Of a stretch of DNA of 47,445 nucleotides, positions 44,225 through 47,445 are shown piece by piece. Numbering within the stretch: position 1 is the first letter of the stretch; each line of letters starts with the position of its first letter. The DNA is taken from positions 1 through 47,445 of the forward strand of contig CATOCA020000029.1 of the NCBI GenBank assembly GCA_951406725.2, read 5' to 3'. The position numbers and the translations under genes are program-made. This DNA is from Octopus vulgaris. Lineage: Eukaryota. The notes under the pieces were generated by a model that worked only from the letters and a program-made list of their open reading frames with translations, did not search any database and was not told where the DNA came from.

Positions 44225-44240
44225 CTGCGAGCCTGAGATG
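41352..44240 (-). mobile_element. LINE family A, copy A7 (longest; 3' end lost in the gap)
   Basis: Uninterrupted EN+RT frame; the 5' end abuts (TA)n. Confidence 0.96.
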
Positions 44241-45479
<1,239 letters not shown>

Positions 45480-46177
45480 TCGGATCCGACAGGGAGAGTC
45501 GTGTATCGCCTTTGCTCTGTTTAAAAGGCAGAAAGTGTGCATAAATCGGTGAAATAATCTACTGAAAGTCACAAATTCAACTCATAAAGTCCACTACAAT
45601 ACTTCGGCTACAAATATATTAATGAAAAACGTAATATATTTTGCCTGAAGCCAAATACAGTAATAACTTTTCTTTTCACCGAAAACGCACATGGTGGAAA
45701 AAATCCACTGTAGAAGGAAAAAGAAACATCTCCTGGAAAATAACCACGAAAAAAAACCCACGAAAAATCCAGACCACATCGTTGGATTAAGTATCACTTT
45801 CATCTTCTATTTCATACTTTGTTTATTATCCTATTTTATATAACTTAAGCCCACATCTCCGTTAAAGTTTACGATCGCCATTTTTTTGTTTGTTTACATT
45901 TCAATAACTGTCTCGAAGGTAGAAATTGGCTTCAAAATTAAATAACCCTTTCTTCACACTTTAAAATATATATATATTTTAATATATTTTCACTCATTTT
46001 CTTTCTTTCTTTTTTTTTTCCACCTTCCTTCTCTCCCCGTCTGTGTATATGTGTATGTGTGTGCACGTGTATGTATGTGTGTGTGCGTGTATGTATATAT
46101 GTATGCGTATATATGCATGGACGTGAACTTTCACGAACTTTATATAGATAACTAATCTTTCCCCTCTTTCTTACCTC

Positions 46178-46852
46178 TTTCAGATACTCCATCTTCTAAT
46201 TAGCCTTAAGATTAAATAACGTTTAATGCTGTTTATTGTTAATAATTTTTCAGATACTCTATCTTCTAATTAGCCTTAAGAATAAACAACGTTTATTACC
46301 CACACTTTAACATCTAATTTTTTACCCACACTCTAATATCTTTCTAATTAGCCTTTTTACCCACATTTTAAATATTTGTTAATATATTTTCAGATACTCT
46401 ATCCTCTAATTAGCCTTAAGATTAAATAACGTTTTTACCCACACTTTAACTTTTTCACCCACACTTTAATATATTTTTGAATACTCTACCTTCTAATTAG
46501 CCTCAAGATTAAATAACGATTATTACCCACACTTTAATATAATTGTAATATTGTTAACATATTTTCAGATACTCTATCCTCTAATTAGCCTTAAGATTAA
46601 ATAACGTTTTTACCCACACTTTAACTCTTTCACCCACACTTTAATATATTTTTGAATACTCTACCTTCTAATTAGCCCCAAGATTAAATAACGATTATTA
46701 CCCACACTTTAATATAATTGTAATATTGTTAACATATTTTCAGATACTCTATCTCCTAATTAGCCTAAGATTAAATAATGGTTTTACCCACAAACTTTAA
46801 TATTGTTAATATTAATAATACTCTATCCCATAATTAGCCTTAAGATTAAATA
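46178..46852. repeat. Minisatellite: nine ~60-88-bp units with a 175-bp higher-order period
   Basis: Core ATACTCTATC(T/C)TCTAATTAGCCTTAAGATTAAATAACG...TTACCCACACTTTAA. CAGATACTCT occurs at 46391, 46566 and 46741. Confidence 0.92.
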
Positions 46853-46911
46853 TCTTCTTGTCTTCTCTCGAACATAGTTAAATAGATAAACAAATAGACA
46901 GATCATCCAGC

Positions 46912-47445
46912 ATGTCCAGAGCATGGATTCCTGACGAGCTGGATTTATTCGTACAAGCATGGGGGTGCGCCGGCGGAGATAGCCCTAGCGAGGTGATTGC
47001 GGCTGCGCTGAAGAGCAGAGGCTACAAGAGGACAGCGGCTCAGATGGAGCGAAAGAGACGGGAATTCGTGCGCTCATATGCGCTTGTACGGTCGCACATT
47101 GGCGCACTTGATGCCATCTTTGAGAACGAGCGGGGCAAAGATGACAAGAATGGAGACGATGAAAGAAGTCACCCCCACCTGGTGGATGCCCGGGAGGAGG
47201 TTTTGAATGAGAAACCTGCCCGGGAAGTGAACCCAGGTGCAAGTTCTCCAACCGGCAGCAAAGGCCATGGAGACGGAGAACCCGGTGAAGAGGTAGAGGG
47301 AGGAGGAAGAACTAAAAGAAGGGCTGGTAGAGCTAAAGGAAAAGCTCAAGCAGGACCAAAGGGTGAAAAAACCAGGAATAGAAGTGGAACCGCAAAAGAT
47401 GGAAACGGACAGCGCACACGGGTGTGTAGGTTCTACCTGAGAGGT
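46912..47445 (+). CDS. Myb/SANT(trihelix)-like domain protein with the start of a probable CCCH zinc finger; open at the window end; candidate LINE ORF1
   Basis: My translation: MSRAWIPDELDLFVQAWGCAGGDSPSEVIAAALKSRGYKRTAAQMERKRREFVRSYALVRSHIGALDAIF...G/K/E-rich linker...RVCRFYLRG. No stop in 178 codons; absent from the ORF track. Confidence 0.75.
   Translation, partial: MSRAWIPDELDLFVQAWGCAGGDSPSEVIAAALKSRGYKRTAAQMERKRREFVRSYALVRSHIGALDAIFENERGKDDKNGDDERSHPHLVDAREEVLNEKPAREVNPGASSPTGSKGHGDGEPGEEVEGGGRTKRRAGRAKGKAQAGPKGEKTRNRSGTAKDGNGQRTRVCRFYLRG

Follow-up and report, generated by a model that had tools for sequence, protein, structure and literature searches.

A young LINE family residing in (TA)n microsatellites of Octopus vulgaris, with an ORF1 protein predicted to carry a Myb/SANT-like domain and a CCCH finger

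Results and Discussion

The open reading frame that runs off the end of an Octopus vulgaris contig was confirmed to be real, and it comprises the first 178 of the 302 ORF1 codons of a LINE of ~5.3 kb. We consider it probable that this frame, beginning at position 46912, is the start of ORF1 in a young, (TA)n-dwelling APE-RT LINE, and that its Myb-like plus CCCH protein is a predicted RNA binder and possibly an aid at (TA)n, with the nick being made by the endonuclease (EN) of the element.

The reading frame at the contig end and the element to which it belongs

The window analyzed here is the entire contig CATOCA020000029.1 (47,445 nt). The frame (46912..47445, plus strand) starts with an ATG and continues for 178 amino acids up to the last base, and it has no stop in the window because the contig ends there. 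Counting genomic copies, as the initial annotation of this DNA had suggested, revealed at least 40 occurrences of the 596 nt covering the ORF1 start, with 95-100% identity (40 of 824 first-look candidates were scored), and because of this recurrence the frame is more than a product of chance. Among the 134 ORF1 matches that were scored when the genome was searched with the protein, 125 were free of internal stops. The same annotation had described a characteristic residue spacing in the frame, and all residues that it named were found (W5, D8-E9, L12-F13, A16-W17, I29-A30, L33, R36-G37-Y38, R40-T41, Q44, K48, F52, and S55-Y56), as was a charged linker followed at the window edge by VCRFYLRG, the last eight residues (aa 171-178). 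The distance of ~1.4 kb that it gave to a (TA)n boundary agrees with the end of the array at 45479/45480, 1,432 nt upstream of the ATG. Its proposal that the frame marks the 5' end of a full-length LINE stands as far as the LINE ORF1 is concerned, but not as regards the full length of the contig-edge copy, as the contig ends inside ORF1. The features of this copy are listed in Table 1.

Table 1. Features of the contig-edge LINE copy and the array that precedes it.
Feature	Position	Strand	Basis or remark
(TA)n-rich microsatellite array hosting the element	44236..45480	.	sequence reading; repeat-coded ORFs
LINE 5' UTR, 1,431 nt	45481..46911	+	matches of 28 copies; alignment to full copies L013, L014
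5' UTR tandem repeats, 87/175 nt, just upstream of ORF1	46371..46803	+	Tandem Repeats Finder
ORF1 codons 1-82, Myb/SANT-like (Myb_DNA-bind_4-like) helical domain, predicted	46912..47157	+	AlphaFold2, VIA-align, hhalign
ORF1 codons 83-166, charged G/K/R/E-rich linker, predicted disordered	47158..47409	+	pLDDT, composition
ORF1 codons 167-178, CCCH finger start	47410..47445	+	first ligand, C172; remaining three ligands past the contig end

Full copies consist of a 1.4-kb 5' UTR, ORF1 (302 aa), ORF2 (996 aa), a short 3' UTR, and a repeat tail, and ORF1 is itself made up of four parts, namely an N-terminal domain, a basic linker, one CCCH finger, and a C-terminal helix. In sister copies, ORF2 lies in the -1 frame relative to ORF1 and overlaps it by 49 nt. 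Since the ORF2 of a sister copy (L012) matches Exo_endo_phos_2 (E 3.6e-12, 46.6 bits vs. a cut-off of 27.4) and RVT_1 (E 1.3e-31, 110.4 bits vs. a cut-off of 29.6), the element is an APE-type LINE; Pfam returned no RNase H match in this ORF2. An APE-RT ORF2 is what the initial annotation had expected downstream, as opposed to a DDE transposase or a spliced single-copy gene, and it is the arrangement seen in the sister copies. Relatives at E <= 1e-20 number 4,493, without clade names. A tail of AAAATC/AAATC/AATC units is present in all 30 + 19 3' ends examined, grading in one copy into other microsatellites, and the 3' UTR does not fold clearly better than its shuffles (z -1.8).

The (TA)n array separates the ORF1-bearing copy from another family member, which is 5'-truncated and lies in inverted orientation (41352-44235, minus strand). 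Besides the contig-edge copy, the window holds seven family copies, all of them 5'-truncated, and perfect (TA)>=6 accounts for 28.7% of its length. The first stretch common to all copies having a 5' end is CGGATCCGACAGGG at 45481; matches of 28 copies begin at query bases 2-8 of window:45478-45640, and two more copies are truncated. The bases preceding CGGATCCGACAGGG (GTATATT in the contig-edge copy, usually ACGTATTTY) may be part of the element too. The 5' end is TA-rich, with ACGTATTTY preceded by TA runs even where the flanks are otherwise unique. Within the 5' UTR, Tandem Repeats Finder reports 2.4 copies of a 175-nt period (96% matches) and 4.9 copies of an 87-nt period, and the repeat number differs between copies, as seen in multiple offset BLAST hits.

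Abundance and relatives

The LINE family is young and present in high copy number. The 5' end yielded 116 first-look candidates, the ORF1 start 824, and the 3' UTR 1,004, so that their number rises from 5' to 3'; identity among the 40 candidates scored for each is 78-100%, 95-100%, and 97-100%, respectively. Half of the copies found by their 3' UTR (15/30) are truncated within the 1.5 kb examined, and both ORFs are open in 4 of the 22 copies inspected. Together with a second family described below, it probably ranks with the repeats of most recent activity in the octopus genome, in a group of animals where transposable element activity is under discussion (as in the sections of PMC9115989 and PMC13282606 drawn on here).

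A HMMER search of 1.84 billion representative proteins with ORF1 returned 33 proteins at E <= 1e-3. When 10 of these were queried, six were named Octopus vulgaris or O. sinensis (as was cluster member P0036), and the closest named proteins come from these octopuses; the rest were one unrelated CCCH-repeat protein and three unnamed entries. In a word-indexed protein search, ORF1 alone gave no match at E <= 1e-3, and the ORF1 family alignment, which contains three conserved modules, gave two proteins, one of them already known.

Insertion in (TA)n and a second family with the same ORF1 layout

Copies of the family lie in (TA)n at both junctions, far above background. When the 20 nt adjoining each junction were inspected, (TA)4 was present downstream of the tail in 19 of 30 copies, upstream of the truncation point in 9 of 15 copies lacking their 5' part, and upstream of the element in 20 of 28 copies with a complete 5' end, compared with 4.4% of the 20-nt windows in twenty arbitrary 10-kb stretches of the genome (200 kb total). 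This enrichment (p about 1e-9 to 1e-21) was gauged against these arbitrary stretches, and the sampled copies may include segmental duplicates (L076/L077; L084/L085). The first two flank bases after the tail are TA in 24/30 copies, and for the in-window copies every readable flank is (TA)n. Thus, the AT-rich target guessed at in the initial annotation proved to be a (TA)n microsatellite, with both junctions above background.

Enrichment is maximal at the junction (18-20/30) and falls with distance, (TA)4 being still present in 5-9 of 30 windows at 200-1000 nt, or ~20% at 800-1000 nt. Part of the signal is therefore regional, because the insertions sit in TA-rich neighborhoods, and the association may also arise from a general AT preference of LINEs. 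We ruled out (TA)n as the element's own tail, since the tail is (AAATC)n and (TA)n flanks truncated copies on both sides. Target-site duplications would be invisible inside (TA)n, and none were convincing by eye in the copies with unique flanks. Perfect (TA)n makes up about 3% of the sampled genome. Four of six loose ends before 5' truncation points, on contigs of one large run, were TA-rich, an observation that is anecdotal.

A second LINE family, whose ORF2 is 34% identical to that of the first, shares both ORF1 layout and target. Its ORF1 has a Myb_DNA-bind_4-like domain (25.4 bits vs. a cut-off of 27; hhalign probability of 89.6% to the first family) and two CCCH fingers. Here, (TA)n follows 29/30 copies, again with the highest value at the junction, the flank begins with TA in 30/30 copies, and (TA)n lies on the 5' side in 8/13 5'-truncated copies. 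The common ORF1 type and target of the two families may reflect shared ancestry. When the ORF2s of both were compared by tblastn with the twenty arbitrary stretches, three old fragments were all that was found. A search for L1-type ORF1 (PF02994) gave no match, either in the octopus or in control genomes.

The domains of the ORF1 protein

Profile-profile comparison supports the homology of aa 1-82 to Myb_DNA-bind_4 domains (PF13837). Direct matches of ORF1 reach 17.9-18.2 bits, below the gathering cut-off of 27, and a match at E <= 0.1 (best 0.0017) is limited to 6 of 24 family members. In hhalign comparisons with five over-threshold PF13837 domains from the same genome, the N-terminal block scored a probability of 95.1% (E 3.4e-8, ~57 columns) and the whole alignment 91.7%, whereas the control values were 0.2% and 0.3% for the respective reversed profiles and at most 1.3% for 30 column shuffles. 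A three-helix Myb/SANT fold is predicted for the same residues, at moderate Z. The AlphaFold2 model built from a 25-sequence alignment (pLDDT 86.5) has helices at aa 7-19, 25-35, 42-60, and 63-81, and VIA-align ranks it closest to LUX (Z 7.5, rmsd 2.0 over 55 residues), RAD (Z 7.3), and GT-1 (Z 7.3), with rmsd values of 2.0-2.9 over 55-58 residues and with Z below 8, a range that the tool calls common for small helical folds. Judged by their titles, ~30 of the 50 VIA-align rows are Myb/SANT-type domains. Myb_DNA-bind_4/3 and MADF clusters ranked first in the ESM Atlas, where scores of 0.80-0.86 are leads only. Foldseek found no match in the PDB at E <= 1e-3 (best E about 0.5-0.9), a profile search of PDB sequences gave none for the N-terminal domain, and a single-sequence AlphaFold model of ORF1 (pLDDT 46.8) was too poor for use. 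The Myb/SANT (trihelix-type) reading that had been proposed for aa 1-70 therefore holds by profile-profile comparison and predicted fold. A basic pI (8.8-10.9) characterizes the three-helix block in 17 of 18 members and, judging from a dN/dS of 0.256/1.381 (about 0.19) between two lineages, the N-terminal domain is under purifying selection.

The linker (pI 9.5; 17 K+R, 14 D+E) is poorly conserved across the family alignment and has a pLDDT <50 in the single-sequence model. In full copies it leads into a finger, CRFYLRGSCWHGKEGAGCRFAH, with C-x7-C-x8-C-x3-H spacing, all four ligands of which are retained in 7 of the 8 family members covering the region. Full copies thus contain the whole of the CCCH finger that had been surmised from its C-x-F/Y-x-x-G opening, and the family conserves it. 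Matches to zf-CCCH (PF00642; 16.7 bits vs. a cut-off of 20.5, E 0.007) and Torus (23 bits vs. a cut-off of 29) fall below threshold, and the MBNL1 finger is a weak match (E 0.02), with only weak MBNL fingers appearing in the profile search of PDB sequences. CCCH fingers usually bind RNA. Nucleic-acid binding is predicted for both the Myb-like domain and the finger, and the C-terminal helix presumably mediates multimerization.

What chooses the target

Our preferred model assigns separate tasks to the two proteins. For the ORF1 protein, we predict binding of the element's RNA and perhaps a part in keeping the particle at (TA)n DNA. Nicking of the (TA)n repeat would fall to the ORF2 endonuclease, which precedent makes the likelier determinant of the site, and the nick would be followed by reverse transcription primed from the (AAATC)n tail. 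Several narrower scenarios for the choice of target can be set beside this model.

1. The ORF2 APE endonuclease may read (TA)n alone. The Myb-like domain would then serve otherwise, for example in RNA binding or chaperoning, in nuclear import, or in SANT-like contacts with chromatin or proteins, and we place this scenario just short of an even chance. The sharp junction, with TA opening the flank in 24/30 and 30/30 copies of the two families, is what a defined nick would give. Likewise, as reported in the part of PMC7265360 used here, the target of the telomere-specific APE LINEs SART1 and TRAS1 follows a swapped endonuclease domain, and its authors regard EN domains as the primary determinants, although EN specificity alone did not explain the telomere restriction of these elements. 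In the octopus, two families with ORF2s of 34% identity have the target and the ORF1 layout in common, so that the endonuclease is not the sole shared candidate, and the three-helix block is basic in nearly all members, like DNA-binding Myb domains.

2. The Myb-like domain of ORF1 might bind the (TA)n duplex and be the main factor steering the RNP to the microsatellite. We regard this scenario as possible but doubtful. It would be in keeping with the homology and predicted fold, which match DNA-binding Myb/GT-1-type domains, with the basic character and low dN/dS of the domain, and with the co-occurrence of this ORF1 type and the (TA)n target in two distant families; for R2 elements, binding of target DNA by an N-terminal zinc finger and Myb domain is described in the pages of PMC12503042 consulted. 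However, the co-occurrence may stem from shared ancestry, SANT-type relatives bind proteins rather than DNA, and the ORF1 proteins characterized so far are RNA binders or chaperones, according to the portions of PMC4120745 and PMC13343379 available to us. A bolder version, in which an octopus CR1-like clade swapped an RNA-chaperone ORF1 for a Myb/SANT-like plus CCCH reader of the (TA)n duplex, attaining harmless, R2-like protein-guided targeting, appears unlikely. Under it, LINE and microsatellite would amplify each other, because the elements have TA-rich ends and land in (TA)n.

3. Annealing between RNA and DNA could select the site. Read-through transcripts ending in (UA)n would pair with nicked (TA)n and so prime reverse transcription, a scenario to which we give a rather slim chance. 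With (TA)n after nearly every copy, read-through RNA would carry the repeat, and (TA)n copied from RNA would be indistinguishable from (TA)n of the target. In SART1, the 3' UTR is proposed to anneal with target sequence (in the same part of PMC7265360). Annealing at the 3' end alone nevertheless leaves unexplained the (TA)n found 5' of truncated copies in both families (9/15 and 8/13).

4. The association could be passive, reflecting TA-rich, gene-poor regions, or the elements could seed (TA)n that later expands. Either is improbable in our estimation. The excess of (TA)4 at 800-1000 nt (~20% of windows vs. 4.4% genome-wide), the TA-rich 5' end of the element, and the one tail that grades into other microsatellites all fit such an origin, but enrichment peaks at the junction (18-20/30 and, in the second family, 29/30) and decays with distance, randomly truncated 5' ends adjoin (TA)n, and TA comes directly after the tail.

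Harbinger elements encode a Myb/SANT/trihelix-like accessory protein, yet the last alternative entertained in the initial annotation, a Myb-like gene of PIF/Harbinger type or one of the host, is refuted by sister copies that run into an APE-RT ORF2, with 5' truncations, a LINE-type tail, and copies in the hundreds or more, and it retains virtually no probability.

Comparison with known elements

Known LINE ORF1 types are few (RRM/CCHC, L1-like, PHD, esterase, and 'unclassified'). In the literature searched, outside which lie most subscription journals and the Repbase reports, neither a LINE ORF1 with a Myb-like domain nor a (TA)n-specific LINE is described. Here, two distant LINE families, both very successful and both landing in the same microsatellite, have an ORF1 with a domain from a superfamily of DNA binders, and hence it becomes testable whether an APE-type LINE can find its target by ORF1 and not by the endonuclease only. 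(TA)n also joins the short list of microsatellites targeted by LINEs. If true, target restriction combined with an ORF1 that reads DNA in a modular way would make such a LINE of interest for retrotransposon-based insertion tools, and co-amplification of LINE and microsatellite would help to explain the ~3% of perfect (TA)n in the sampled genome.

We infer that the octopus LINE belongs to the CR1 group, with CR1-type 3' repeats. LINEs of the CR1/L2 group (Jockey superfamily, ORF1 types I-V) are likewise bicistronic with APE and RT in ORF2, and their 3' ends consist of short tandem repeats instead of poly(A), as in the octopus element. The sister families present in the window terminate in repeats of 8 nt (TATCAAAG and TTCTAAGT), which recall the 8-nt repeats of chicken CR1. 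Among CR1-group elements, poly(A) is unique to Zenon, and 5' UTR subunit arrays have been described as well (both in the portion of PMC13343379 cited above). The ORF1 domains of the Jockey superfamily surveyed in PMC4120745, as far as its accessible text goes, include CCHC knuckles, RRM, PHD, coiled coil, esterase, Transposase_22, and zf/leucine zipper, and a word search of that text finds no occurrence of Myb, SANT, or CCCH.

R2 also encodes a zinc finger plus Myb module, which binds target DNA upstream of the nick (PMC12503042, same pages). It differs in having a single ORF, a restriction-like endonuclease, its fingers on the RT polypeptide, and a 28S rDNA target, whereas the octopus module lies in the separate ORF1 of an APE-type LINE, with a CCCH finger and a domain of the Myb_DNA-bind_4/GT-1 kind. 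Myb_DNA-bind_4/plant GT-1 trihelix domains have the same three helices plus a fourth and a conserved W...W/I...F/W-type hydrophobic spacing; in the octopus ORF1, the third aromatic is F52 rather than W, the score is below Pfam gathering, and the setting is a retrotransposon ORF1. Similarly, CRFYLRGSC...GCRFAH aligns with the first finger of Muscleblind (MBNL1 ZnF1), but the octopus protein has a single finger with its own spacing, and the match alone is not significant.

Insertion into simple repeats with a fixed junction phase is likewise known for Waldo (ACAY)n, Mino (AC)n, Kibi (TC)n, Koshi (TTC)n, and Dong (TAA)n, which belong to the R1, Tx1, and R4 clades. None of the microsatellite-specific LINEs reviewed in the passages of PMC3812793 drawn on is (TA)n-specific, the sole (TA)n-specific element named there being the rice MITE Micron. 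RTE-2_OV, which is reported to be expressed in octopus brain and encodes a C2H2 finger within a single 1,109-aa ORF (RTE clade; PMC9115989, sections as above), is an octopus LINE too, but a different element.

A LINE family at the contig end

The frame at the end of the window contains every residue of the Myb/SANT-type spacing named in the initial annotation; the VCRFYLRG read at the window edge is its C-terminal end, and the (TA)n boundary placed ~1.4 kb before it corresponds to an array that ends 1,432 nt upstream. Because the window is the entire contig C59 of a 2.8-Gb genome, the 178-aa frame is truncated by the contig end. The copy count proposed there shows that the 596 nt around the ORF1 start are a repeat, with at least 40 genomic matches at 95-100% identity (824 first-look candidates, 40 of them scored).

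Sister copies were examined in 10-kb stretches at four near-identical copies and 7.5-kb stretches at 18 more. Intact copies encode a 302-aa ORF1 and a 996-aa ORF2, in the -1 frame and starting 49 nt ahead of the ORF1 stop, in which Pfam finds Exo_endo_phos_2 and RVT_1 and nothing beyond them. The frame in the window is thus the 5' part of a LINE ORF1, and the predicted downstream APE-RT ORF2 is present in the sister copies. This family (family 1) is an APE-RT LINE, and therefore a PIF/Harbinger Myb-like gene and a host gene, raised earlier as alternatives, are both excluded. Both ORFs are open in 4 of the 22 copies.

The element begins with CGGATCCGACAGGG, at window base 45481. Its 3' end is ...GCTGAAACTGG plus a tail built from AAAATC/AAATC/AATC units, or in one subfamily ...ACTAG(AATC)n; the copy in stretch L013 is 5,327 nt long. 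Tandem repeats of 87/175 nt in the 5' UTR vary in number from copy to copy. First-look candidates number 116 for the 5' end and 1,004 for the 3' UTR, an increase expected of 5'-truncated LINE copies. We place family 1 in the CR1 group provisionally, from its non-poly(A) repeat tail and other features of that group.

LINE features in the window and a full family-2 copy elsewhere in the genome
Feature	Position	Strand	Details
Family-1 ORF1, 5' portion	window 46912-47445	+	ATG to last window base, open, 178 aa
Family-1 copy, 5'-truncated	window 4274-5486	+	
Family-1 copy, 5'-truncated	window 6054-6706	+	
Family-1 copy, 5'-truncated	window 8457-11020	+	
Family-1 copy, 5'-truncated	window 12841-13746	+	
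Family-1 copy, 5'-truncated	window 27712-28190	+	
Family-1 copy, 5'-truncated	window 36606-36996	+	
Family-1 copy, 5'-truncated	window 41352-44235	-	head-to-head with studied copy, 1.2 kb (TA)n between
Diverged ORF1 N-terminal fragment	window 1619-1813	+	residues 24-89, 50% identity; no family-1 ORF2 adjoining
Family-2 LINE	window 15273-18323	+	ORF2 34% identical to family 1; tail (TATCAAAG)1-3
Third related LINE, fragment	window 38440-40027	-	ORF2 41% identical to family 1; tail (TTCTAAGT)2, then (TA)n
Family-2 full copy	L163:2438-6674		ORF1 374 aa, ORF2 1,079 aa

Architecture of ORF1

A word-indexed protein search with ORF1 returned zero relatives, and an exhaustive HMMER search of 1.84 billion representatives returned 33 proteins at E <= 1e-3. 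Among the ten of these that were looked up, six bear the name Octopus vulgaris or O. sinensis, as does a further cluster member (P0036), and one is a dinoflagellate CCCH-repeat protein aligned to the finger only. The family alignment contains three conserved modules: an N-terminal block of ~75 residues, a CCCH finger joined to it by a charged, poorly conserved linker, and a C-terminal helix (…EQ.SFL.MAQ.IV.QLTWLH). The finger guessed from its opening residues proves to be a full C-x7-C-x8-C-x3-H, and 7 of the 8 members that span the region retain every one of its four ligands. It is similar to MBNL1 ZnF1 (E 0.02). Against Pfam, ORF1 scores below threshold for Myb_DNA-bind_4 (17.9 bits, cut-off 27), zf-CCCH (16.7, cut-off 20.5) and Torus (23, cut-off 29).

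The Myb/SANT reading of the N-terminus was borne out by profile comparison with an alignment of five over-cut-off PF13837 domains from a search of the same genome. Here hhalign assigned the entire ORF1 alignment a probability of 91.7% (E 7.7e-7) and the N-terminal block one of 95.1% (E 3.4e-8), compared with 0.3% and 0.2% for the respective reversed profiles and at most 1.3% for 30 column shuffles. AlphaFold2 models residues 1-90 from a 25-sequence alignment with pLDDT 86.5 and predicted helices at 7-19, 25-35, 42-60 and 63-81. Foldseek found no significant match to this model, its best-probability rows being TEAD4, PHR1-MYB and RAD-MYB. VIA-align against 48,161 chains placed LUX (Z 7.5, rmsd 2.0, 55 residues), RAD (7.3) and GT-1 (7.3) first, and, judging from titles, Myb/SANT-type domains account for about 30 of the 50 rows; every Z is below 8, a range that by the tool's own warning may reflect a common arrangement. 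Of 18 family members, 17 have a basic three-helix block, and the block's dN of 0.256 against a dS of 1.381 between two family-1 lineages indicates purifying selection. The domain is a divergent one of the Myb_DNA-bind_4/trihelix kind, below the Pfam cut-off when scored alone.

Insertion into (TA)n

The single (TA)n boundary behind the earlier guess of an AT-rich target generalises across the family. Of 28 5'-complete copies, 20 have (TA)4 in the 20 nt preceding the last 7 bases, and of 30 copies found via the 3' UTR, 19 have it within 20 nt past the tail (24 of the 30 3' flanks open with TA); sampled copies may include duplicated loci. In twenty arbitrary 10-kb stretches (L093-L112), a small baseline sample of genomic DNA, 4.4% of 20-nt windows hold (TA)4. 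Within the DNA examined, (TA)4 also occurs in the 20 nt ahead of 9 of 15 truncation points, which indicates that the element inserts at the repeat rather than carrying it. The signal peaks at the junction and falls to ~20% at 800-1000 nt, so copies lie in TA-rich neighbourhoods, yet the junction itself is enriched. No target-site duplications were visible by eye at family-1 copies with unique flanks. Judged from these flanks, a (TA)n target preference of family 1 is supported.

All readable flanks of the seven truncated copies in the window are (TA)n; runs of N adjoin three family-1 copies there, leaving the flanks on those sides unreadable. Perfect (TA)>=6 makes up ~3.0% of bases in the arbitrary stretches, a high load for an animal genome, and contig C59 is an extreme case at 28.7% perfect (TA)n.

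Related families with the same target

Family 2 follows the same ORF1 plan, with a Myb_DNA-bind_4-like domain (25.4 bits, cut-off 27; hhalign against family 1 89.6%, E 1.9e-6), a Q-rich linker and two CCCH fingers spaced C-x8-C-x4-C-x3-H. Of 30 copies, 29 have (TA)4 after the tail, and the repeat also stands ahead of 8 of 13 truncated ones. With 40,257 first-look candidates, and 99-100% amino-acid identity in all 140 scored, family 2 is extremely abundant and young, and probably among the most recently active repeats of the Octopus vulgaris genome. The third relative has a 3' UTR similar to that of family 2. Therefore this ORF1 type and the (TA)n target go together across distant families, a co-occurrence that fits a causal link and shared ancestry equally well.

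Possible routes to the target

In the mechanism we favour, a nick within the (TA)n repeat would start target-primed reverse transcription, priming from the (AAATC)n tail. ORF1p would coat the RNA by means of its CCCH finger and basic linker, and might multimerise through its C-terminal helix. That the APE domain alone reads (TA)n has somewhat under an even chance, since EN swaps in SART1/TRAS1 are reported to carry specificity across (PMC7265360). We hypothesize that ORF1 may steer the element to (TA)n; for its Myb-like domain as the main guide, the zinc finger plus Myb of R2 offers a precedent (PMC12503042), and we consider this role rather unlikely. Annealing of read-through (UA)n RNA to the target is improbable, and passive accumulation, or seeding of (TA)n by the element, more so still.

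Comparison with known LINEs

The available portion of a Jockey-superfamily survey lists ORF1 types with CCHC, RRM, PHD, coiled coil, esterase, Transposase_22 and zf/leucine zipper (PMC4120745); the words Myb, SANT and CCCH are absent from it, as from the available portions of two further papers, a CR1-group survey from 2026 and a study of gastropod non-LTR elements. Microsatellite targets of LINEs given in the accessible part of a review are ACAY, AC, TC, TTC and TAA, the rice MITE Micron being the sole element named there for (TA)n (PMC3812793). Our search, which covered mainly openly accessible papers, found neither a description of a Myb-like plus CCCH ORF1 type nor a (TA)n-specific LINE. 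The evidence supports family 1 as an APE-type LINE that prefers (TA)n as its target and whose ORF1 architecture is undescribed within the literature searched. The brain-expressed octopus LINE RTE-2_OV, in contrast to the two-ORF family 1, is described as a single-ORF RTE element (PMC9115989). A 2026 O. vulgaris repeat annotation, as far as available, reports 13 recently active CR1 families without ORF analysis (PMC13282606); therefore families 1 and 2 are probably in repeat libraries already.

Mosaic evolution and structural variation

Comparison of the copy in L012 with those in L125 and L126 reveals unrelated 5' UTRs and a dS of 1.38 for the Myb-like domain and 0.77 for the linker, against only 0.05-0.15 for the CCCH finger, C-terminus and ORF2. 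From this sequence contrast, recombination between diverged lineages seems to have swapped the 5' module, which reaches to about ORF1 codon 166.

Upstream of some full-length copies (L014:560-645 and the L053 5' flank), the element's 5' terminal bases (…GATATACGTATYT) are tandemly repeated several times. The tail of one copy (L012:5980-6260) passes gradually from (AATC)n to (ATC)n and on into a long (ATT)n, which suggests that family-1 tails are able to grow into other microsatellites. ORF1 matches on two other contigs, at G000:C15:63108273 and G000:C2:183993764, lie within open frames of 1,237 and 1,380 aa, in which ORF1 and ORF2 could be fused in a single frame.
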